Of a stretch of DNA of 64,000 nucleotides, positions 31,019-57,742 are shown piece by piece (the stretch's first letter is position 1; each line of letters opens with the position of its first letter). A program made the position numbers and the translations under genes. Under the pieces are notes generated by a model that had not been told where the DNA came from, made no database searches, and saw nothing but the letters and a program-made list of their open reading frames with translations. The stretch lies in sequence record OM630585.1. One strand, given 5' to 3'. The stretch comes from Escherichia phage vB_EcoM_LNA6.

Positions 31019-31575
31019 TCAGTGTACCTCAAGCCAATTCTTACCAACTTTACCAGTACCAGTTACAAGCGTTTCCTCCTTAAGTCCTAAGTTTCTTGAT
31101 GCCTGACCATACATCCAGTCAATCACTGCTTTAACATCTTGTGTCATCTCTTCTGGGCACTCCCAACTATTTTCATCGTGGTATGCTAGAAGCAATCTAG
31201 CACCAATAGCTGGTTTTCGACCATTCAGCTTTGTAAGACCCTCTTCACAAGTTCTTCTACAAGCGAGGTTGATGGCTTCATTCTGAACCTGACTTTCCGA
31301 ACCCATGAGCAGATAATTCAATAGTTTGTGTGGAGATTTACACCACAACCATGCACCAGCAACCTTTACAAAACCACCTTTAGAAATTGCAGCAGTCTTA
31401 CCAAATACCTCTTCAAGAGCCTTCTTAGTGGCTTTGAAGTCAGCTTCCAAATTATCTATCAACTTTTTAATCTTAGGGAGGCGTACAAAGTAAGTTTGCT
31501 TAGTTAAAGCACCTTCTTCGGTTGTTGATGCTTTAATCGTCTTGGCAAACTTCTCATCACCTGCCCCAAACAATA
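31019..31575 (-). CDS. DNA polymerase (family A, T7 gp5-like), exon 2
   Basis: Begins in motif B (..LFGAGDEKF, cf. T7 YGFLYGAGDEK) and ends with motif C region HDENSWECPEE and C-terminal GKNWLEVH; exon boundary inferred. Confidence 0.75.
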
Positions 31576-32376
31576 CATCTGGTCAATACACTCGCAAGGT
31601 GTACCAGTTCTCTTATGAACTTCTCCGCATTTCTACGGAGTGTCGGACTATATCACGTAGTAGTAATACTACCGTTGCACTTGGGAATGGTCATTAGCTT
31701 ACCACCCTACTCTACTCAGTTCATACATTAAGTATGCTTTTCGATAGTCTCTGAACGTTTCTCTGTTAGGAACTCTAAAATACTATTGTTTACTAAGGTA
31801 TGCAATTGCTCTCTGCATATTATCAACGCTATCTGCAAGCAACCCCAAAGCCCTATTGCAATTGTGGCACAACATACCTCTTACTTTTCCGGTTTTGTGG
31901 TCATGGTCAACGACAAGTTTAGCCTTATGCCGTGAACTATTCATGATAAAACCTTCACCGCCACAAATTTGACATTTGTAATCACAGTTACGGAGTAAGG
32001 TTTCAACCTCTTCTCTTTCTAAACCATATGTTCTCAGGTAGTAATTCTTAACTCTACCTTTCTCTCCGCAATGCGAAGAACAATAAACTTGCCTTGCTGT
32101 TCTAGGCATGAACACCTTCTCACAGCTAGGACATTTCTTAGTAAGAACCCTATGTTCTGCTCTTCTGTCAAATTTTAATACGCAACTTCTGCACCGTTTT
32201 TGATTGTATTGGTATGGTTTAAACTCTGCACCACACTCAGTACACAATCTCTCTTTGTAACCTGCCATTGTCTCTCCCCTTTGCTTTAGGAGTCCTAACA
32301 GAGACTTCGCTGCTGATTACCATATCTTTACAGACTTAGGCTTCCAGCAATTCACAACGTTTTACATGCGCCACTG
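31576..32376 (-). mobile_element. group I intron interrupting the DNA polymerase gene in motif B (boundaries approximate)
   Basis: Minus strand shows GTTCAGAGACTATCG (R/P7 5' strand) and GATATAGTCCGAC (S/P7 3' strand) downstream of the HNH ORF, plus a CTCCG-TAGAAAT-CGGAG hairpin; polymerase reading frame interrupted by stops on both sides. Confidence 0.7.
31783..32268 (-). CDS. HNH homing endonuclease (endonuclease VII-like), intron-encoded
   Basis: 161 aa; multiple CxxC pairs and LVVDHDHKTGKVRGMLCHNCNRALG, a His-Me finger/EndoVII-type HNH motif; lies wholly inside the polymerase intron. Confidence 0.75.
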   Translation of the reverse strand: MAGYKERLCTECGAEFKPYQYNQKRCRSCVLKFDRRAEHRVLTKKCPSCEKVFMPRTARQVYCSSHCGEKGRVKNYYLRTYGLEREEVETLLRNCDYKCQICGGEGFIMNSSRHKAKLVVDHDHKTGKVRGMLCHNCNRALGLLADSVDNMQRAIAYLSKQ

Positions 32377-34519
32377 ACGCATAAATGCCATTCTTGGCTT
32401 TCTTACGACCCTTACTAATTTCTTGAAGAAGGTTTGTATCCTGAGTAGCTCGACAAGTCAAGATATCTTCCTCTTTATTAAGGCTGAAGTAGATGCTATT
32501 TAAAGTATGCGCATCAGTTCCTGAGTACACCACGTACAAGTCATTTTCAGAATCATAATGCAAATACTTGTCAATCTCTGGGTTTAGATACTGGTCAAAA
32601 TGTTTGCAATAGTATCTGCCATCCTCTTGTTTGACAAACTCAACTTCTTCTTTACCCTCTGTCACTGCTTTGGTGAACTCTTTATCACCCATAAAGTTAC
32701 ACAGCAGTACAAGTTGCGCGCTATTCATATCTGCTGAAACAATATTAGTTCCTTCTTCACAAGTCCACACCTCCCTCATAGGTGCTCCATAGACAGCAGC
32801 ACCAGACGGTACGTTTACAATACCATATTGTGTCATACGTCCAGTTGAAGTGCCAAACACCATTGCACCAGCACTAAGGCGACCATCAGGACGAATCTGG
32901 TTCAACCAACCTTTTTCATCATCCTTTGAGTTCTCAATAGTTCTGCGTCGGTGCATCAAAGTATAGTACTTAGCAATCTTCTGTCCAAGCTCACCTTCAA
33001 TCGTATCATAAGATGATTCAGTAAGTTTTGGTGAAGTACGGATTAAGCAAGGTTCAAGCAAATCTGTGTATTTCTTCACAGACCAGTTATGCTCAATATA
33101 CTGTACACCTTCGTGCTCAACATAGCTCAAACCACACCGCTCAACCATTTCCTGCCACTTAGGATGTTTTGTAATCATCTTTTTATTGTCTTTGAAACGA
33201 CAAACTTTGACAGGGCGACCATCTGAGTCTTTCTTGTAGTTCCAGTCATCTGGAATCCAACCAACTGATTTCAAGTAGTCTTTAACAACTGCTACCTGAG
33301 TCATACGAGAAACTTCAAACTCAATTGGTGTATACGGTGCATCAATCAAACCTGTGTAGCGACTTGACTCAAGTTCAAAGTGGTTAACAACGTGACTGTT
33401 ATAGTACTTCACAGTTTTGACTGTTTTTACTGGCTTCCAGTCTTTGCATTTCTTACCAATCTTTGCATTCAACTCATTGCAAATTTCACGAGCATCCTTC
33501 ATTGCTACAAAACCCTCCTTGTACTCTTCACCAGTTACAGAGTTGGTTGGTGTATAGCAATTTCTCTTTTCAATGTTAAAAATCTTTGTAGTTGGCTTAC
33601 CAAATGGCTTGATTTCATATGTCTGCATCTCACCATTACGTACCTGCTGACGATACTTTGTCTTAGGGTACTTGGTAATCCTCTTCAGTCCATCTGCATG
33701 ACCAAATGTTTCAACATACTCATTCCAAGCCCTTGCAAACTCTTCTCCAGTGACTTTACCTTTGGTCTTAATAGTTGGAGGAAGATGTGGTTCAACCTCT
33801 GAAGCAAGCTCATTAGTCAACTTGTCAAGTTCCTTTACATGGAACTCCATAAGCTCTTTATCAGCTTTCCAACCATTGATAGCTTGCTGGCTCATCCAGA
33901 AAGATGTCTCTTTAGCTCGCATGTAGGTTTCATAAGTGTCTATGCCACACTTCTTAAGCTTGAGATACTCGTTATCAAGTGCCCGTTTAGTTTTGGTGTT
34001 AATACGGATATCTTCTACAACACGAGTGAAGATTTCTGCATTCCACACACCCCAATGTTCAATCTCTGGTTTACGAACACCGACACGAGCACCCCATGCA
34101 GCCAAACCATGAGCACCTTTATAACCCCTTGGAGTTGGTCTATCCATCCACTGAACACGAGACTGAATAAGAGAATCCTGAAAGAAATTACTCCACGGCT
34201 TACACTTTGGATTATCAAAGTTCCATAAATCAGGTGCAATGTGATTGAAAACCCACCAGTCATAACCGAGACCGTTATGGATGCAAAGACGTTTTGCCTT
34301 TAACGCAAACTCAACACCTTCACGTAAACCACCCTTAATGTACTTGGTATACTTGTGACCGAGGATAGGCTCATCTGTGAAGACCCATACAGGTGGCTCT
34401 TCATCGTCAGATTTATAGTCTGCAAAAGCCATTACGTGAACTTTAGTGAACTCAAGGAGTAAACCATCAGTCTCTGTATCACCAACCAAATGTAAGTTTT
34501 TAAAATCTATGTTTTCCAT
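32377..34519 (-). CDS. DNA polymerase (family A, T7 gp5-like), exon 1 with 3'-5' exonuclease domain
   Basis: N-terminal VGDTETDGL (Exo I DxE); regions YTPIEFEV, GRLSAGAMVFGTSTGR and ADMNSAQLVLLCNFMG align from memory with T7 DNA polymerase; ends in motif B RKKAKNGIY. Confidence 0.8.
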
Positions 34520-40388: not shown

Positions 40389-41435
40389 ATGGAGAAGTAC
40401 ACATTAACAAAGCTTCCCGATTCAGTTACACATGTCTTTATTGACTCTGACAGTATTGCCTATAAAGGTGCTTGTGTAGTTGAGAAAGCAAAATATAAAT
40501 ATGTCAATAAACTCACAGCAGAAGAATCTGAGCCATTTGATAATGCTAAAGATGCTGCAAGATGGTTAGCAGACCAGAGAATCCTTGTGGAAGAACTTGG
40601 CCTAGCATTTGATGAAGATGAATGGGAAAGACAGACTTGGAAAGAAGCTAAGAGTGAAAAAGAGGCTATCATGGCTACTCAACAGGTTCTTCAGGAATGG
40701 CTTAAGGTTGTTGGTAAAGAGAGAACTTGGGTAGGTTACTTAACAGAGAAAGGTGTGCATAAACATAAAGACATTAAAGGTCTTGAGCACCAATATCAAG
40801 GTAACCGTAAAGATGCTGTCACACCAACACACTTAGTTGCTTGTCGTGAATATCTTCTGTCAAGACCAGAGTTCAAATTGATTCTTGATGGATTTGAAGC
40901 TGACTCTATCGTTATTGCTAAAGCTGAAAAGATGGGAAAAAAGGCTGCCTTAATGAGTATTGATAAAGACCTTCGCCAAGCTGAAGGGACTTACTGCATT
41001 GATATGACCTATGAAAAGTCGCCTTTGATTTTTATTGCTGATAACAACGTTGGTGAAATTTGGGATTGTCCAATAAAATCGACACCAAAAGCTAAGAAGA
41101 CAGTTGGGGTAGGTTTTAAATTTCTTTGTTACCAAGCTGTGGCTGGTGATAATGCTGATAATTATTTTGGTTTAAAGGGCGTTGGTAAGGCTACTGTAAT
41201 GAAAGCCCTTGAAGGTAAAACTACTTATAAAGAGTGTCTTGATGCTATCTATGAACTTTATGCTAAGAAAGAGTCCTATACTTATGTCTCGTGGGATGGT
41301 CAAACAATTACCAGAACACCTTTAGAGTTAATGCAGCAACACTTTTTCTTAGCTTATCAGGAAAGAAACAAGAAAGACGATTTCACTTTTGATAAGTATG
41401 GGTGGACACCAAATGTTAACTCAACAAACTCTTAA
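40389..41435 (+). CDS. 5'-3' exonuclease / flap endonuclease (RNase H-like)
   Basis: 348 aa; VFIDSDSIAY, ADSIVIAKAEK and MSIDKDLRQ resemble acidic clusters of T4 RNase H / FEN family; GLKGVGKATV helix-hairpin-helix-like. Confidence 0.55.
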   Translation: MEKYTLTKLPDSVTHVFIDSDSIAYKGACVVEKAKYKYVNKLTAEESEPFDNAKDAARWLADQRILVEELGLAFDEDEWERQTWKEAKSEKEAIMATQQVLQEWLKVVGKERTWVGYLTEKGVHKHKDIKGLEHQYQGNRKDAVTPTHLVACREYLLSRPEFKLILDGFEADSIVIAKAEKMGKKAALMSIDKDLRQAEGTYCIDMTYEKSPLIFIADNNVGEIWDCPIKSTPKAKKTVGVGFKFLCYQAVAGDNADNYFGLKGVGKATVMKALEGKTTYKECLDAIYELYAKKESYTYVSWDGQTITRTPLELMQQHFFLAYQERNKKDDFTFDKYGWTPNVNSTNS

Positions 41436-41913
41436 AGAATACCTGCACTATGACCCCGAAACAGGGGTCTTTACTTGGTTAGTTGGTAGAAAAGGTAAGG
41501 CCAAAGCTGGCTCAGTAGCAGGTCTTAAACATCATAGTGGTTATATCTATATAAAACTCTTCGGAAAAAGATATGCAGCACACAGACTGGCATTCTTGTA
41601 TATGAAAGGATACCTCCCAAAATTTGTTGACCACAAAAATGGTATCAGGCACGACAACTGGTTCGACAATTTGAGAGAGTGTAGCAGGTCAGACAACAAC
41701 TGCAATGCAGTCAAAAGAAAAGATAATAAGTCTGGTGTGAAGGGTGTATATTACCACAAGCAAAGAGGTAGATGGGCTGCACAAGTCAAGCATAATAAAG
41801 TATGCTACCATCTAGGTTTATTTGACTCTATCACTGAGGCTGAATCAGTTGTCAAAAAGAAAAGAGAAGAACTCCATAGAGAGTTTACAAATCACGGAGA
41901 AGCTCATGAATGA
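41413..41913 (+). CDS. HNH homing endonuclease with AP2-like domain (free-standing)
   Basis: FVDHKNGIRHDNWFDNLRECSRSDNNCN HNH motif followed by SGVKGVYYHKQRGRWAAQV AP2-like segment; start trimmed to ATG 41413; paralogue of 55455..55946. Confidence 0.7.
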   Translation: MLTQQTLKEYLHYDPETGVFTWLVGRKGKAKAGSVAGLKHHSGYIYIKLFGKRYAAHRLAFLYMKGYLPKFVDHKNGIRHDNWFDNLRECSRSDNNCNAVKRKDNKSGVKGVYYHKQRGRWAAQVKHNKVCYHLGLFDSITEAESVVKKKREELHREFTNHGEAHE

Positions 41914-42410
41914 TTAAAGTTAAAGGTTTTGGGAGTTGCCCCACTTATGGTCACTGGATTTCACTATGTGGTGAAGTTGACCCAGCAAAGCACTTTGGTT
42001 TTGTCTACCTAGTGTACTGCAAAAAGACTGGACAGTACTATTTGGGTAAGAAACAGCTTAACAGTGTGACCAAAAGAAAAGTTGCTGGGAAGACTCGGAA
42101 GAAGGTAGTCACTAAGGAGAGTGATTGGATGACTTACGAGACTTCTTCTGAGTATATTAAAAAAGATATTGAGAGCTTTGGAAAAGAATTTTTTGACTTT
42201 TACATTATTCAGACCTACTACACTAAAGGCGGTCTAGTTTATGGCGAAGCAAACCTTCAACATAAATTCGATGTAATGACAAAAAGGATTGACTCTAAGC
42301 TCAGACTCTTCTACAATGCCAATATTGCAGCAATTAAGTTTATTACTAAAGAAACTTATGAAGATGCTGAAAAAAGAATCCATAAGGTAATGAAAGCAAA
42401 TTGTGCTTGA
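41910..42410 (+). CDS. GIY-YIG-like endonuclease (putative)
   Basis: 166 aa; FVYLVYCKKTGQYYLGKK resembles the GIY...YIG motif; ATGA overlap with upstream HNH gene. Confidence 0.4.
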   Translation: MIKVKGFGSCPTYGHWISLCGEVDPAKHFGFVYLVYCKKTGQYYLGKKQLNSVTKRKVAGKTRKKVVTKESDWMTYETSSEYIKKDIESFGKEFFDFYIIQTYYTKGGLVYGEANLQHKFDVMTKRIDSKLRLFYNANIAAIKFITKETYEDAEKRIHKVMKANCA

Positions 42411-48199: not shown

Positions 48200-49396
48200 A
48201 TGAACAAAGTACAGATTATTAAAAAGAACGGCTCACTTGAAGAACCTGATATCAAAAAAGTTTTAGCAGCAGTCACAAAGTCAGCTAACAGAGTTGGTTA
48301 TAAAGAGCTTCCACCAGATGTTACTCAAGCTCTTGAGTCAGCATTTATGAGGATTCTGGTAAAATCTACTAAGCAGAATAATTTACTCGTTTCAGTAAAT
48401 GATATTCACAGTATTGTTGAGGGTGCTTTGGCAGAAGTCAATCACGAGATTTATGAGTCTTACTCAACATATAGAAATTACCGTAAAGAGGTTGCTCAAA
48501 ATTGGGATGAACTTTACCAGAAGACCAAAGATACACTCTTCTTAGGTGACCGAGAAAACGCTAATTTTGACAGCAGTTTAATTTCTACAAAAGGTTCAAT
48601 TATTCGTGGTTACCTGACTAAAGAAATCTTTAAACAGTACCACTTAACACCAGAGGAACTTGAAGCCATTGAAAAAGGGTTTATTTATATCCATGACTTA
48701 AGAGACCTAATTTTTGGTGGTATCAACTGTTGTCTGTTTGACATTGGTAAAGTGCTGAAAGGTGGCTTTGAAATGTCTGGCATTGAATATTGTGAACCGA
48801 AGTCTGTACTGTCAGCATTACAGGTTATTGGCGATGTAGTTCTTTCAGCAACTGCACAGCAATTTGGTGGCTTTACTTTAGCAGAGATTGATAAGGTACT
48901 TGTACCGTATGCTAAAAAATCTTTAGTGTACCACTCAGAGAAAGCTGAAGAGTACGGAATCCCTAAAGAGCAACACTATAATTACGTAATGGAGCAATTA
49001 CAGAATGAGTTAACACAAGGTTTCCAATCTCTTGAAATGAAACTTAACACTGTTCCTTGCAGTCGCGGTGATTTTGCATTTACTACTCTGACATTTGGTC
49101 TGTTGGAACCAGATATGCACAATGAAGATAACCGTCTTCAGTTTATGATTGCCAATACAATCCTTAACGTAAGGATGAACGGGCAAGGAAAAAGCAAAAA
49201 ACCTGTTGTGTTCCCTAAACTTGTGTATATCTATGAAGAAACGAGACATAAGCTTGATGTATGCCAAGTAAGGTTGTTTGAAAAAGCTATTGAGTGTTGC
49301 TCTAAAGCTATGTATCCAGATTTCTTAAGTGTATCTGGTCATGGTGCTGTAGCAGAGGCTTTTGAGCGTTCTGGTAAGGTAATTTCCCCGATGGGT
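48200..49396 (+). CDS. nrdD: anaerobic ribonucleoside-triphosphate reductase, exon 1
   Basis: YIHDLRD..GGINCCLFD...EPKSVLSALQVIGDVVLSATAQQFGGFTLAEIDKVL aligns from memory with T4 NrdD; exon ends ..ISPMG with final U at 49396 followed in-frame by TAA. Confidence 0.8.
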
Positions 49397-50138
49397 TAAC
49401 AAGCTCTATAGCTCATCTAAAACGTGCCTAAACAGGGAAACTCTACAGATGTAGACAATCCTGTGCTAAATGATGTACGATGTAAGAAACTATACAACAT
49501 AGGAGTCTTACATGCCAAACTATCACGTCACTGAAGATGGAAAAGTCTTTAGGGAAAATGGTGTAGAGCTTACGCAGTGGAAATCCAACACTGGGTATAT
49601 GAAAGTGAGGTTTTACGGTAAGAAGAATCGTGACATGTATGTCCACAGGTTAGTTGCTGAGAAATATGTACCTAACCCGAACAATCTTCCAATTGTAAAA
49701 CATAAGGACGATAACAAACTAAATAACCACGTATCTAACTTAGAATGGGGTACTCATTCTGAGAATGCTAAAGAAGGTTATGAGAATGGATGCTACAAGT
49801 TCCACAAGCGTTCATATGCCGTGAAAGCCACACACAAAGTGACAAAGGAAGTTATTGTTACTAAGTCAATACGAGAGTTATCCAATATACTTGGATACAA
49901 TCGCAAGACCATCTCTTCAATATTGAAGGGTGTAAAAGAGCATAATAACTTCGAATATGAGTTTGAATACATCTAAATGCCGAACGACTAACCGTGATGA
50001 ATGTAGCGGTGTAGGGTCAAGCGACTCGAAATGGTACGCTACTTAGAAATAAGTAGAAGATATAGTCTGGACTTACTGGCGACAGTAAGCAGCTTGAATA
50101 AAGCGGGGTAAGCTTAGCGAACTTACCTGAACAATAAG
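49397..50138 (+). mobile_element. group I intron in nrdD
   Basis: Interrupts NrdD between ..VISPMG and CRAFLS.. (cf. T4 ..VSPMGCRSFLS); intron ends with G 50138; core GACTCGAAA (P7 5'), CTACTTA-GAAA-TAAGTAG (P8, 7 bp stem, GAAA loop), AGATATAGTC (P7 3') at about 50018-50065. Confidence 0.75.
49512..49976 (+). CDS. HNH homing endonuclease with NUMOD-like HTH, intron-encoded
   Basis: 154 aa; VHRLVAEKY...HKDDNKLNNHVSNLEWGTHSEN HNH motif; C-terminal SIRELSNILGYNRKTISSILKG HTH-like; inside nrdD intron. Confidence 0.7.
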   Translation: MPNYHVTEDGKVFRENGVELTQWKSNTGYMKVRFYGKKNRDMYVHRLVAEKYVPNPNNLPIVKHKDDNKLNNHVSNLEWGTHSENAKEGYENGCYKFHKRSYAVKATHKVTKEVIVTKSIRELSNILGYNRKTISSILKGVKEHNNFEYEFEYI

Positions 50139-51086
50139 TGTAGAGCATTTTTATCACCATACCATAACGAATATGGTGAAGAGTTTTATGTAGGTCGTGC
50201 TAACATTGGTGCTGTATCTTTGAACTTACCAATGATTTACCAGTATTCTAAAGAGAAGGGCTTAGATTTCTGGAAAGAGCTTGATAAGTACCTAGAGATG
50301 ATTCGCAGCTTCCACAAGAAACGCTACGAAATGATTGCTAATATGCCAGCAAGTTCTAACCCTCTTGCATTCACACAAGGTGGTCTGTACAAAGGGACTA
50401 AGAAACCTACTGACAAGGTTGGTTGGGATATCGTGAAGTCCTTCACAGCTTCTTTTGGGGTTACTGCTCTTGATGAACTGTCTGTTCTTGCTGAAGGTAA
50501 ACGACTTCATGAAGTTGGAAGATATAGTTTTGCATACGATGTTCTGGAATACATCAACATGAAAACTGAAGAGTTTAAGAACGAAGATGGCTTCTTGTAT
50601 GCGGTATATGGCACTCCAGCAGAATCACTTTGTGGAACTCAGTTAAAACAGTTCAGAGATATGTTTGGCGTTATTAAAGGTGTCTCTGACAAGGAATACT
50701 TTACAAACAGTTTCCATATGAATGTTGCAGCAGACATCTCACCATTTGAGAAGCAGGACTTAGAAGAGCCATTCTTCCATATCTGTAGAGGTGGCAGAAT
50801 CCAGTATGTAAGGGTAGCTAACCCAGAAAACTTAACAGCACTTAAAAGTTGTATTACCAGAGGGATGTTGAAGGGTTTTTATCAGGGACTTAACTTTAAC
50901 TTAGCAATCTGTGAACATTGTGGTAACAGACCAAAGGCTGATGTTGAAGAATGTGAGGTTTGTCATTCACACGATATCTCTGTGATTAACAGGGTGTGCG
51001 GATATTTGGGATGGACTAAGATTAAAGGTGAATCCCGAATGAATGATGCAAAAATCGCTGAGATTCGTGACAGAATTTCTATGTAA
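50139..51086 (+). CDS. nrdD: anaerobic ribonucleoside-triphosphate reductase, exon 2
   Basis: Open frame from 50139 (CRAFLSPYHNEYGEEF..); YFTNSFHMNV and C-terminal glycyl-radical region RVCGYLGW align from memory with T4 NrdD. Confidence 0.8.
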   Translation, partial: CRAFLSPYHNEYGEEFYVGRANIGAVSLNLPMIYQYSKEKGLDFWKELDKYLEMIRSFHKKRYEMIANMPASSNPLAFTQGGLYKGTKKPTDKVGWDIVKSFTASFGVTALDELSVLAEGKRLHEVGRYSFAYDVLEYINMKTEEFKNEDGFLYAVYGTPAESLCGTQLKQFRDMFGVIKGVSDKEYFTNSFHMNVAADISPFEKQDLEEPFFHICRGGRIQYVRVANPENLTALKSCITRGMLKGFYQGLNFNLAICEHCGNRPKADVEECEVCHSHDISVINRVCGYLGWTKIKGESRMNDAKIAEIRDRISM

Positions 51087-53767: not shown

Positions 53768-54283
53768 ATGTACCTGTCAAACCTGAAACGTTCGGCTGCA
53801 ATGTCAGTGTTAAGACTCAGCTTTGAGGAACGTCAAGAGTTCATTGACTCCCACCAATACGACCCCTCAAACTCCAATCACATGATTCTCTGGAATCGTG
53901 AGAGTACTCGTGAAAGAGCATTATTCCGATATTACCCATACTACACCATAGATAACCTGTATGAATGTTTTGTTGTGAAGAACACCATTACAGTGCTCAA
54001 TAAACTTTGCAGATACACAGGTAGTCAATCCTTCACATTAGGCCACCACAAACCTGTTACAAAAGGTGGTGAACATCACTGTGCAAACTGGTTTATCCAA
54101 ACTAAAGCTGATAACCAGAAGCAAGGAGATAGCCTCCTAAGTACACCTAAGATGACCTATGAAGAGCAAGAGAAATATATCAAAAACAATATGCCAGATG
54201 TGCTTGACAACAACTATACAGATTTGGCAATATCTCTCCTGTTGAAGTTCGAGACAGTTTATAGGGCAACTTATAATGGCTAA
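53768..54283 (+). CDS. HNH-motif nuclease domain protein (putative, cysteine-less HNH)
   Basis: LGHHKPVTKGGEHHCANWFIQTKADNQKQGD matches the spacing of the HNH core (H-H..P...GG.....N........N..K..D). Confidence 0.4.
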   Translation: MYLSNLKRSAAMSVLRLSFEERQEFIDSHQYDPSNSNHMILWNRESTRERALFRYYPYYTIDNLYECFVVKNTITVLNKLCRYTGSQSFTLGHHKPVTKGGEHHCANWFIQTKADNQKQGDSLLSTPKMTYEEQEKYIKNNMPDVLDNNYTDLAISLLLKFETVYRATYNG

Positions 54284-54605
54284 AGAGAAGTGGGAGATTT
54301 TACCATTAGTCAGTGAAGGTGGTAATGGTTGTGAGATGTACATGATACGTGGTCATGTTCCAGAACCAATTGCACTTGAGATGGTAAACAACTTTACAGA
54401 TGGTTCTTACAAAGACTTAGGCGAACCAACTGTCAAGCAACAATGGGTTAAACCTGTACCAGACAGCACAGGTAACTGTAGTGTACTTTATCACGTTGTA
54501 GACCCTGCAAAATGCAAATCTGCAATGGCAGTAACAAACGTAACTTTGATTGAGAGAGAAAACTATGAAGACATCTATCCGTGTTACAGTTCATTCACCA
54601 ACTAA
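54276..54605 (+). CDS. hypothetical protein
   Basis: 109 aa ORF. Confidence 0.35.
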   Translation: MAKEKWEILPLVSEGGNGCEMYMIRGHVPEPIALEMVNNFTDGSYKDLGEPTVKQQWVKPVPDSTGNCSVLYHVVDPAKCKSAMAVTNVTLIERENYEDIYPCYSSFTN

Positions 54606-55446
54606 AGGAACTCATGAAGAGGAGTTTAACATCATCCAATTTCCTTCTGGTGAGATTGGTGGACACTTTTCGCCAGAGTTTGTTGATTTCACTGCTTATG
54701 CAGCATCATCCATCAACAATGTGATTATGATTGTAAAAGGTTATGATAAGGATACATTGTTTGCTGTTGCACTTGCTAAAGAAGCAATTGATGATTTAGT
54801 CCCTCATGACTATGCCTTAAAGACTGTCATCTTTTACTACTTACCAAATGCACGTTATGACCGTCACATGTTTAAAGGTGACGCAGCAGCTTTAAAGGTT
54901 TTTGCTAAACAGGTAAATGCAATGGGATTTGGTGCAGTCTGTGCAGTTGACCCTCACAGTTACGTTCCAGATAACCTGTTTAACTGCTTCCAGAGTATTC
55001 CTCAAAAGGAGATTGCAGTTCACTACGCAAATGACCCACTGATTGATTACTTAGTAGCCCCAGATGCAGGTGCTTCTAAGAAGATTGCAGAGACTGCTAA
55101 AGAGGTGGATAAACCATACATCACAATGTCTAAAGTACGCAACCTCAAGACTGGTGAAATTACTGGTATGCGAATCCTTGACGATGTTGATTTGACAGAT
55201 AAAACCGTCATGATTCTTGATGATATCTGTGATGGTGGTCGAACCTTCGTAGAGGCAGCTAAACACCTACGTGAAGCAGGTGCAAAACGTGTTGAGCTTT
55301 ATGTAACACATGGTATCTTCTCTAAAGGTGTTGAAAACCTTCTTGACAACGGTATCGACCATATTTACACTACAAACTCTTTAGGCGAAGCTAAAGACCG
55401 TGGCTTAACACATTATAGTCAAGTTACTGTAGCAAATTTGGATTAG
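54565..55446 (+). CDS. ribose-phosphate pyrophosphokinase (PRPP synthetase)-like protein; candidate ADPR-pyrophosphate synthetase
   Basis: VMILDDICDGGRTF (PRPP-binding loop, cf. VLVDDMIDTGGTL), GAKRV and THGIFS align from memory with E. coli Prs C-terminal half; start at ATG 54565. Confidence 0.7.
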   Translation: MKTSIRVTVHSPTKGTHEEEFNIIQFPSGEIGGHFSPEFVDFTAYAASSINNVIMIVKGYDKDTLFAVALAKEAIDDLVPHDYALKTVIFYYLPNARYDRHMFKGDAAALKVFAKQVNAMGFGAVCAVDPHSYVPDNLFNCFQSIPQKEIAVHYANDPLIDYLVAPDAGASKKIAETAKEVDKPYITMSKVRNLKTGEITGMRILDDVDLTDKTVMILDDICDGGRTFVEAAKHLREAGAKRVELYVTHGIFSKGVENLLDNGIDHIYTTNSLGEAKDRGLTHYSQVTVANLD

Positions 55447-55454
55447 GTATTAAA

Positions 55455-55946
55455 ATGGATAAGGGTTACTTCGAAAAATACCTAATATACGAACCGGAGA
55501 CAGGTTTACTAATTTGGAAAGTAACCCTTTGCAATACCGCTATTGCTGGTAATGTTGCTGGCACAAGGTCTAAGAAGGGTTATATCCAAGTCCAGATAAA
55601 TAAGAAGAGGTACTATGCACATAATATTGCATGGATTATGTCTGGAGGTGAGATACCAAGTGGATATGAGATAGACCACATAGACCTTGATAAATCTAAT
55701 AATAAGTTGGAGAATTTAAGACTTAGCACAAAGTCACAAAATCAGAGGAATAGGGGTATATACAAGAATAATAAAACTGGTGTGAAGGGTGTAAGTTTTT
55801 GTAAACAAACAGGTCTTTACAAAGCAAGAGTCATGCTTTACCATAAAGAATACTTTTGTGGAAGATTTAAAACGGTAGAAGAAGCAAAAGAAGCTGTAAT
55901 TAAAAAGCGAATAGAACTTCATGGTGAGTTTGCAAGACATAACTAA
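55455..55946 (+). CDS. HNH homing endonuclease with AP2-like domain (free-standing)
   Basis: YEIDHIDLDKSNNKLENLRLSTKSQNQRN HNH-type motif followed by TGVKGVSFCKQTGLYKARV AP2-like segment; paralogue of 41413..41913. Confidence 0.65.
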   Translation: MDKGYFEKYLIYEPETGLLIWKVTLCNTAIAGNVAGTRSKKGYIQVQINKKRYYAHNIAWIMSGGEIPSGYEIDHIDLDKSNNKLENLRLSTKSQNQRNRGIYKNNKTGVKGVSFCKQTGLYKARVMLYHKEYFCGRFKTVEEAKEAVIKKRIELHGEFARHN

Positions 55947-55960
55947 GAGAGAGATAAAAT

Positions 55961-57742
55961 ATGAGTAAGTCACTTTACGCAGTACCAGCAGGTCTTAATG
56001 CAGATGCTTACAAGGCATCACATATATATCAGTATCCAGATGCTACGCAATATCTTATGTTGAACCTGACACCACGTAGTGACAAATGGTTTAACAGCCC
56101 CTTAGCAATTGATGGTGTAGTAGCTTTTGGTATTCAACGTTTCGTTAAAGATTACTTGATAGACCACTGGAACGCCACTTTCTTTGAACGTGATAAAAAA
56201 GAAGCCATTGATGAAATCTTAGAAGTCATGAACGGTGTTCTGGGCAAAGATGCTATTGGTCGAGAGCATTGGGAAGCACTTCACGACTTAGGTTATCTGC
56301 CAGTCGAAGTATACGCTGTAGAAGAAGGCACAGTTGTTCCGATGCGTGTCCCAATGATTGCCTTCCAGAACACTGTTTCAGGATTCCATTGGGTAGCAGG
56401 TTATCTGGAAGATGCTTTCTCTGCTGAGATTTGGAAGGCTTGCACTATTGCGACTATTGCATTGCACTACAAACGTATCTGTAAGAAGTGGGCTGACCTT
56501 ACTTGCGACAATGAATTACATTTACCTTATCAGTGCCATGACTTTGCTATGCGTGGTATGTCCGGCTTTACCGATGACGCATTTAATGCTGTAGGTCACT
56601 TAACCAGCTTTAAAGGAACTGATAGCTTCCCTGCTGTATACACGGCTAAACGCATCTATGGACAGTCTTACCCAATTTCTGATATTGGTAGTTCTGTACC
56701 AGCCACTGAACACTCTGTAATGTGTGCAAATATTGCTTGGGAAGGTGGTAATGAATTGATTGAAGAAGAAAGACGCTTTAAAGGTGAGTTGCAAACCTTC
56801 CGTCGTTTCTTAACAGAAACTTACCCAACTGGTATTGCAAGCATTGTGTCAGATACTTATAACTTCTGGAGAACTGTGTCAGAAATCTTACCAGCACTCC
56901 GTAAAGAAATTATGGAACGTGACGGTAAGCTGGTAATTCGCCCTGACTCTGGAGACCCTGTACATATTGTCACAGGTTATAAAGCAATCCACTTAGAGTG
57001 TGCTAAAAAGGCTTATTACGAGCACCTAAGCAAGCTGGAAGCTAGTGATACAATGCTGAACTCTGTTCTGAACATGAAGCTTGAAAACATCAACTATGGT
57101 ATTGCTGGATGGCTACTGTCAGAAGGCTACGAAATGGTTGTTGACCGAGAAGACTTTGAAGTTGCTGATACAGTGATGTTGAAAAATGCTTATATGGTTG
57201 GTTCTGCAAACGTTGTAACACGTCCTGTAGCAGAGATTGATGGAGCTATTAAGACCCTGTATAACATCTTCGGAGGAACTATCAACTCTAAAGGTTTTAA
57301 GGTACTGGATGAGCACATTGGACTTATCTATGGTGACTCTATCACACTGGAACGTGCAAACGAAATCCTGAAGCGTCTGTATGAAATGGGTTTTGCAAGC
57401 TCTAACGTAGTGTTTGGCGTAGGCTCTTACACTTACCAGTACATGACTCGTGACACCTTTGCATTTGCTGTTAAAGCAACTCTTGCAAGCATTGGTGGTA
57501 AAGAGATTATGCTTGCAAAAGACCCTAAAACAGATAGTGGTGTGAAGAAGTCTGCCTTTGGTGGTGTAGCACCTATGTGGGATGGTGATAAGCTGAAAGC
57601 TGTAGATGGCTATGGGTTCCAGAGCTTTGCAGATGCACTTGAACATCCAGCTTGTGCTCTACGCTTAGTCTTTAGTGATTCTGAGCAGTATGGTTACACA
57701 TCTCTTGGTGATATTCGAAATAATATTGACAAACAGCTTTAA
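55961..57742 (+). CDS. nadV: nicotinamide phosphoribosyltransferase (NAMPT/NadV) family protein
   Basis: DAYKASHIYQYP, HDFAMRGMSGF..GHLTSFKGTDS, SVPATEHSVM, RPDSGDPV and YGDSIT align from memory with NAMPT conserved blocks; 593 aa with C-terminal extension. Confidence 0.8.
   Translation: MSKSLYAVPAGLNADAYKASHIYQYPDATQYLMLNLTPRSDKWFNSPLAIDGVVAFGIQRFVKDYLIDHWNATFFERDKKEAIDEILEVMNGVLGKDAIGREHWEALHDLGYLPVEVYAVEEGTVVPMRVPMIAFQNTVSGFHWVAGYLEDAFSAEIWKACTIATIALHYKRICKKWADLTCDNELHLPYQCHDFAMRGMSGFTDDAFNAVGHLTSFKGTDSFPAVYTAKRIYGQSYPISDIGSSVPATEHSVMCANIAWEGGNELIEEERRFKGELQTFRRFLTETYPTGIASIVSDTYNFWRTVSEILPALRKEIMERDGKLVIRPDSGDPVHIVTGYKAIHLECAKKAYYEHLSKLEASDTMLNSVLNMKLENINYGIAGWLLSEGYEMVVDREDFEVADTVMLKNAYMVGSANVVTRPVAEIDGAIKTLYNIFGGTINSKGFKVLDEHIGLIYGDSITLERANEILKRLYEMGFASSNVVFGVGSYTYQYMTRDTFAFAVKATLASIGGKEIMLAKDPKTDSGVKKSAFGGVAPMWDGDKLKAVDGYGFQSFADALEHPACALRLVFSDSEQYGYTSLGDIRNNIDKQL

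Follow-up and report, generated by a model that had tools for sequence, protein, structure and literature searches.

Known homing endonucleases and Felix O1-like phages

The Seg and Mob genes of phage T4 are small nuclease genes wedged among conserved genes and present in some relatives only; for example, mobE sits between nrdA and nrdB. HNH homing endonucleases are also known from the Bacillus phages SPO1 and SP82 (I-HmuI and I-HmuII; PDB 1U3E), I-HmuI being intron-encoded and ending with a helix-turn-helix domain. HNH-AP2 homing endonucleases are found in phages, cyanobacteria and ciliates. In 2004, Magnani and colleagues reportedly proposed that the AP2/ERF domain of plants descends from this class.

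The 2010 genome paper of phage Felix O1 described six HNH endonuclease homologs (PMC3185647). Later papers repeat this endonuclease load and report that an endonuclease ORF interrupts nrdD (PMC4837284). The literature thus already documents HNH-AP2 homing genes, as well as the interrupted nrdD and the large number of endonuclease genes in phages of the Felix O1 type.

The stretch of DNA analysed here, called the window below, consists of 64,000 nucleotides of Escherichia phage vB_EcoM_LNA6 (OM630585.1). Two of its genes, HNH1 and HNH2, are, like the T4 Seg and Mob genes, small nuclease genes inserted among conserved genes and present in some relatives only, but they combine a different nuclease with a different DNA-binding domain. 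Their nuclease part is of the I-HmuI type; unlike I-HmuI, they are free-standing and carry an AP2 domain at their end, and they are ordinary members of the HNH-AP2 class. The product of a third gene, adjacent to HNH1 and called the GIY gene below, has its catalytic domain (SegE_GIY-YIG) in common with T4 Seg proteins, whereas the gene shows neither their DNA-binding tail nor their polymorphism. The reading proposed here, to which we give a probability of about 0.75, is that HNH1 and HNH2 are free-standing homing genes and that the GIY gene encodes a fixed, domesticated, domain-only nuclease with a housekeeping role.

Genomic context

The window belongs to a Felixounavirus, with 96-97% nucleotide identity to its relatives of the Felix O1 group. 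The surroundings of both loci share 93-97% identity with about 258 GenBank phage records of this genus, and its close relatives include Felix O1, ASO1A, Andreotti and Mushroom. The three ORFs pointed out by the initial annotation, i.e., HNH1 (41413..41913), the GIY gene (41910..42410) and HNH2 (55455..55946), all on the + strand, are indeed present in the window. They are already annotated in the GenBank records of its relatives, the HNH ORFs as “HNH (homing) endonuclease” and the GIY ORF as “GIY-YIG homing endonuclease” or “NAD synthetase”.

Pfam and PHROG matches agree with the flanking genes that had been named for the two loci: a FEN-like 5'-3' exonuclease and a MazG-like protein at the first one, Prs-like and NAMPT-like proteins at the second one. 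The exonuclease gene (40389..41435, + strand) matches phrog_107 (3e-66), with weak matches to Pfam 5_3_exonuc, and its 3' end overlaps HNH1. The first locus is part of an operon whose start is a strong promoter-like site (39404) and whose end, shortly upstream of nrdA, is a terminator-like site (44052).

The figure of at least five endonuclease genes in 64 kb also holds, and the window has three further ORFs of this kind. One of them (49512-49976), an HNH_3+NUMOD1 ORF, splits nrdD; another, an Endonuclease_7 ORF on the minus strand (31783-32268), splits the gene of a family-A DNA polymerase; the last one (53768-54283) is an HNH-like ORF orthologous to gp77 of phage Bas63 (97% identity). The whole window has no Rfam match at the gathering threshold, and group I intron matches, located in both split genes, are sub-threshold only. 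None of the six nuclease-like ORFs of the window has a match in NCBIfam.

Domains of HNH1 and HNH2

HNH1 (166 aa) and HNH2 (163 aa) are paralogous, as had been proposed: in a phmmer search against all ORFs of the window, they find each other with E-values of 5e-31 and 1.6e-30, and they share about 40% identity. The conserved blocks initially listed for the pair stand for the most part, since Y(D/E)PETGxxxW, GYI, GVKGV and ELHxEF are present in both proteins, but the exact block KKGYI occurs in HNH2 only. HNH1 has an alternative ATG start at 41398, which is the one used in GenBank records of its relatives. Its I-HmuI-like N-terminal region and HNH_3 core cover approximately residues 1-100 and its AP2 domain residues 107-160.

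Profile searches uphold the HNH assignment and, less firmly, the AP2 one. Both proteins exceed the curated cut-off of Pfam HNH_3, which is 24.8 bits (9e-13 and 48.1 bits for HNH1; 1.6e-19 and 69.7 bits for HNH2). Their AP2 matches lie below the cut-off of 33.3 bits (31.6 bits and 2e-7 for HNH1; 20.8 bits and 5e-4 for HNH2), and all five HNH alleles examined match this profile at E<=0.01. Both proteins also match phrog_99, “HNH endonuclease”, with E-values from 1e-69 to 1e-74 (3.5e-69 for HNH2), and PADLOC gives homing-endonuclease matches for both genes. At least 1505 homologs were found, many of which have precomputed HNH_3 and AP2 (PF00847) assignments. Across 71 homologs, among them HNH1 and HNH2, the catalytic residues D73, H74, N86 and N98 do not vary.

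Structural comparison leads to the same assignment: the nuclease part has the fold of HNH_3 nucleases, and the AP2 part displays a three-stranded sheet packed on a helix that can be superposed on solved AP2 domains. Searched against PDB sequences, HNH2 gave no significant match. The 5' end of HNH1, which is conserved and contains a GC-rich hairpin at 41452-41469, has a predicted RNA fold that does not differ from those of shuffled sequences (z=-1.7).

Occupied and empty sites

Alignment of the window with LinBro, whose site is empty, and with ECML-1 and ekra delimits the HNH1 cassette to 41391..41912 (+ strand). This cassette supplies the final 14 or so exonuclease codons in a version of its own, and its end is the motif ATGAATG, which the empty site has as well. 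The sequence of the exonuclease tail goes together with the presence or absence of HNH1, with …KYGWTPNVNSTNS in carriers and …KKYNWEPCMNED in non-carriers. When HNH1 and the GIY gene are used together as a query, most relatives align with the GIY half only, the exonuclease gene directly abutting the GIY gene. This empty junction is intact (75-nt probe) in 166 of about 257 records that have a close exonuclease ortholog; therefore, about a third of the genomes (about 91) are occupied. The occupied site harbours one of three divergent alleles, i.e., the window/Felix O1, ECML-1/HY02 and ekra/bumzen types, which share about 60% amino-acid identity (about 60% between the ECML-1 allele and that of the window). 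Their first 85 nt or so are identical in the window and ECML-1 alleles and closely similar in the ekra allele.

In the same way, alignment with REP12 and Sf17 (both empty) and with Mijalis (occupied) places the HNH2 cassette at 55447..55950 (+ strand). It replaces an intergenic stretch of about 30 nt that, at empty sites, includes a terminator-like hairpin (GGGGCTTAAAAGCCCC followed by a T run). HNH2 is carried by 61 records, and the empty spacer between prs and NAMPT is intact in 190 of about 257 relatives (81-nt probe). In Mijalis, a Mooglevirus, HNH2 occupies the same site. Between this phage and the window, the dS of HNH2 is only 0.33 whereas those of the flanking prs and NAMPT reach 1.02 and 1.14, so that HNH2 is about three times younger than its flanks; this indicates a transfer between the two genera after their split. 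A co-conversion gradient around HNH2 was also considered. Identity to Mijalis rises toward the insertion, but the same profile is obtained with Sf17, another Mooglevirus that lacks HNH2, and this rise is therefore attributable to conservation intrinsic to the genes.

The comparison of relatives, which the initial annotation had suggested as a check, thus reveals presence/absence polymorphism at both HNH sites. HNH1 and HNH2 assort independently, all four combinations being found among relatives: both genes in Felix O1, HNH1 only in LF82P5 and adrianh, HNH2 only in phiWec177 and Meda, and neither of them in UAB_Phi87, REP12 and Sl26. However, the presence of these genes could partly follow clades instead of recent mobility.

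Polymorphism alone fits active homing and passive turnover equally. HNH-AP2 genes might not be self-mobilising but be accessory genes passively gained and lost by recombination or deletion, with a function in competition (marker exclusion, or cleavage of the DNA of co-infecting phages) or in AP2-based regulation; that no co-conversion tract was detected around HNH2 would agree with such a passive turnover. Nevertheless, the cassettes have precise boundaries, which agree to the nucleotide between genera, alleles have been replaced at the HNH1 site, HNH2 is younger than its flanks according to dS, and the proteins have kept intact catalytic residues within a known homing-enzyme architecture shared by more than 1500 homologs. 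Passive turnover thus appears improbable. The empty sites, the four combinations and the low dS of HNH2, together with the domains and the three alleles, support the intronless homing that had been put forward for the two HNH-AP2 genes. Judging from these sequence comparisons, HNH1 and HNH2 would be selfish free-standing homing genes, gained and lost among related phages.

Homing of these genes would begin when a carrier phage co-infects a cell with a relative devoid of the HNH gene. The HNH enzyme would nick or cut the empty junction, i.e., the exonuclease/GIY junction for HNH1 or the prs/NAMPT one for HNH2, and repair would then copy the cassette out of the carrier genome. The carrier itself would be immune, because the insertion would destroy the cleavage site, to which the altered exonuclease tail adds in the case of HNH1.

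The GIY-YIG gene, a conserved gene of Ounavirinae

The GIY gene (166 aa) had been assigned only weakly to the GIY-YIG nucleases. The family was right, but the assignment is far from weak, as the protein matches Pfam SegE_GIY-YIG (PF19835) at 9e-27, with 94.2 bits for a cut-off of 25. This is its sole Pfam match. Y33, Y44, E113 and N136, invariant in 74 relatives, are all present in the protein of the window, as are all the residues that are invariant in the family. They include the basic residue K48, the classical GIY-YIG arginine having no obvious position. The model of the protein has the fold of the GIY-YIG superfamily: structure comparison gives the catalytic domain of I-TevI as the closest fold, followed by other GIY-YIG nucleases, with the defence nuclease PD-T4-3 as second-best match, and the closest viral structure models are SegE-like proteins. 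No significant match to the protein was obtained among the sequences of the PDB. Profile comparison does not show any specific kinship to T4 EndoII or I-TevI, the single-sequence templates being uninformative.

A word-indexed search for homologs retrieved 9 proteins only, and an exhaustive profile search was needed to recover the family, which comprises 2183 clusters with a bimodal distribution of lengths. The short forms (135-180 aa), to which the protein of the window belongs, consist of the domain alone, whereas the long forms (230-360 aa, e.g., P0009) add NUMOD3-like C-terminal repeats (NPMxG/SEETRxK). No C-terminal DNA-binding region (NUMOD3 or helix-turn-helix) was found in the GIY protein, which ends about 27 residues past the domain.

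Many GenBank records, as well as the label of phrog_447, describe this protein as an NAD synthetase. This identity was rejected, since the protein matches only SegE_GIY-YIG in Pfam and has no match in NCBIfam. A RefSeq note also reads [quoted passage not shown].

The GIY gene was found by tblastn (at least 60% identity) in 296 phage records, to be compared with 303 records that have the exonuclease gene. The exonuclease records without such a match include those of distant Pectobacterium and Nitrincola phages. The Pectobacterium phage Arno18 encodes a structural twin of the GIY protein with 49% identity. The neighbour of the exonuclease gene in the Nitrincola phage was considered as a candidate homolog and proved to be an unrelated gene. 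Felixounavirus, Mooglevirus, Kolesnikvirus and a Hafnia phage share the same gene order: primase/helicase, hypothetical gene, exonuclease, GIY gene, small ORF, MazG, then, further on, nrdA. Identity to the distant genera is 0.60-0.61 for the GIY protein, 0.55-0.60 for the exonuclease, 0.38-0.42 for MazG and about 23% for the small ORF. The dN/dS of the GIY gene relative to these distant genera, for which synonymous sites are saturated, is 0.03-0.09, which indicates strong purifying selection. The ATGA overlap initially noted between the stop of HNH1 and the start of the GIY gene is present in the window; in empty-site phages, it is the exonuclease stop that overlaps this start, so that the GIY gene is translationally coupled to whichever gene lies upstream. 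In the record of phage EC6, the GIY gene is apparently in two pieces, which may mean either that it is dispensable or that the record contains a frameshift error.

The initial annotation had considered the GIY gene as a homing element like the two HNH-AP2 genes, and had itself held that conservation in all relatives without insertion polymorphism would speak against homing. This is the pattern found for the GIY gene, which is syntenic in essentially every relative, under purifying selection and devoid of a C-terminal DNA-binding region; therefore, the homing claim falls for this gene by the annotation's own standard. It is a conserved core nuclease gene of Ounavirinae that, to judge from its distribution and selection, is probably not mobile now.

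All three genes could still be homing genes if the GIY gene were a Seg-like element that became fixed in the ancestor of Ounavirinae and has remained selfish, its DNA-binding specificity coming perhaps from a partner. The longer members of the SegE family do resemble typical free-standing homing genes, short copies found elsewhere, such as in the Stenotrophomonas phage Mendera, are placed like insertions, and many GenBank records use the homing endonuclease label. However, a selfish endonuclease that has become fixed should decay, whereas the GIY gene is as conserved as the exonuclease gene. It also keeps its position in four genera and has no DNA-binding extension, and about 300 genomes show no polymorphism in its presence or absence. 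A persistent selfish element thus seems quite unlikely.

Possible roles of the GIY-YIG protein

The conserved core gene would be co-transcribed with the 5'-3' exonuclease gene and translationally coupled to it, at the head of an operon devoted to nucleotide metabolism. Its product might make the entry cuts needed for the breakdown of host DNA and nucleotide salvage, or process replication or recombination intermediates.

Comparison with other phages points in this direction. In the unrelated roseophage DSS3_VP1, a GIY homolog with 43% identity directly follows a 5'-3' exonuclease gene. Furthermore, T4-like cyanophages (more than 400 records) keep a short GIY homolog near nrdA/nrdB, and in the T4 record denA, which encodes the GIY-YIG nuclease EndoII, comes after nrdB. 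The pairing of the exonuclease and GIY genes may thus have been kept across unrelated lineages, i.e., Ounavirinae, DSS3_VP1 and possibly the cyanophages with short copies. T4 DenA resembles the GIY protein in that it is a small GIY-YIG nuclease, has no separate domain for DNA binding and is encoded next to genes of nucleotide metabolism; according to the annotation of the T4 record, host-DNA breakdown starts with the cuts made by DenA. Because of the DSS3_VP1 pairing, the nrdA/nrdB neighbourhood in cyanophages (denA in T4) and the operon between 39404 and 44052, the favoured role, although a tentative one, is that of an endonuclease partner of the 5'-3' exonuclease, acting either in host-DNA breakdown and salvage or in the cutting of branched intermediates. 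The DNA of Felix O1-type phages is not known to be modified, and that a general nuclease would have to spare phage DNA counts against such a role of the GIY protein.

A role in counter-defence, for example the destruction of a nucleic acid belonging to a host defence system, of the kind proposed for gp77 of phage Bas63, was also weighed. Bas63, another Felixounavirus, encodes at least one validated small nuclease-like protein, gp77, that counters the retron Ec67 (PMC11482910), and among the fold matches of the GIY protein the second-best one is itself a defence nuclease. However, gp77 is the product of another gene. Labelled as a GIY-YIG protein, gp77 was considered as a possible ortholog of the GIY protein, but it corresponds to the HNH-like ORF at 53768-54283, and the ortholog of the GIY ORF is bas63_0057 (96% identity), for which the text of PMC11482910 reports nothing. 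Moreover, PADLOC gives no match for the GIY protein or for the ORF at 53768-54283, and universal conservation beside the exonuclease gene, in genera that infect different hosts, better fits a core role. Counter-defence is therefore a rather unlikely function for this protein.

Implications for annotation and phage biology

The value of these results lies mainly in annotation and phage engineering. The HNH-AP2 cassettes would be dispensable and mobile, and would mark recombination-prone junctions. The genes prs and NAMPT, which flank one of these junctions, are the two by which Bas63 was shown to counter defence systems that deplete NAD+.

Hundreds of records describe the GIY gene as “GIY-YIG homing endonuclease” or “NAD synthetase”, but it is probably neither mobile nor the gene of an NAD enzyme, and it would be better annotated as a conserved, exonuclease-coupled, domain-only nuclease. 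If the protein is indeed a partner of the exonuclease, the cyanophage copies labelled “NAD synthetase” or “homing endonuclease” would be mislabelled too. Furthermore, should the protein prove to be the endonuclease that makes the entry cuts in the degradation of host DNA, it would provide a clean case of a homing catalytic domain recruited to a housekeeping function.

Start of the HNH1 cassette

The HNH1 cassette starts with ~85 nt (41391-41478), comprising the tail of the exonuclease gene and codons 1 to 22-29 of the homing endonuclease gene, that are identical in the window and in the relative ECML-1, and the allele of another relative, ekra, is closely similar to both over this stretch. Since the ECML-1 HNH1 protein is only ~60% identical to that of the window outside these ~85 nt, this common start suggests a shared recombination arm. 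It includes a GC-rich, terminator-like hairpin (41452-41469), whose folding energy does not reach significance (z=-1.7).

Surroundings of HNH2

The other paralogue, HNH2, lies between two co-essential counter-defence genes, prs (54550-55446, + strand) and the NAMPT gene (55961-57742, + strand), the ortholog pair of g79/g80 from the Felixounavirus relative Bas63. Experiments showed that Bas63 g79/g80 restore NAD+ and counter Sir2-HerA, retron Ec86 and hhe (PMC11482910). The hairpin terminator found at the prs/NAMPT junction of empty-site phages, which lack the cassette there, is lost where HNH2 is inserted.

A 171-aa ORF (53768-54283, + strand; phrog_3500) shares 97% identity with Bas63 gp77, which was validated as countering retron Ec67 in a preprint that also ascribes a GIY-YIG domain to it (PMC11482910). 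No Pfam match to GIY-YIG was found in the window ORF; it has a weak HNH match and its motif, GHHKPVTKGGEHH...NW...DNQKQG, looks HNH-like.

Split genes

Two other genes of the window are interrupted by nuclease ORFs. The family-A DNA polymerase gene (31019-34519, - strand) is split into 32336-34519 and 31019-31573 by an Endonuclease_7-domain ORF (31783-32268, - strand), and the Felix O1 paper mentions no insertion there. The gene nrdD (48200-51086, + strand) is split into 48200-49399 and 50220-51086 by an HNH_3+NUMOD1 ORF (49512-49976), a split already on record for UAB_Phi87 and its relatives (PMC4837284). Each split gene has a group I intron match below threshold: the one at 32217-32353 scores 28 bits (E=5.8e-5) against a gathering score of 50, and the one at 49909-50089 scores 33 bits (E=1.9e-6). 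The Rfam scan of the entire window returned no family at gathering score.

Annotation and status of the GIY family

The phrog_447 label "NAD synthetase", given to the GIY-YIG domain family, has spread to hundreds of phage records. Among its carriers are more than 400 genomes of T4-like cyanophages, which have a short GIY homolog near nrdA/nrdB.

The ortholog of the GIY gene (41910-42410 in the window) in Escherichia phage EC6 (NC_027369 / JX560968) seems to be divided into two ORFs of 87 and 91 aa, recovered as two tblastn pieces. This corresponds either to a frameshift in the record or to a natural disruption; the latter, if real, would speak for a dispensable gene.
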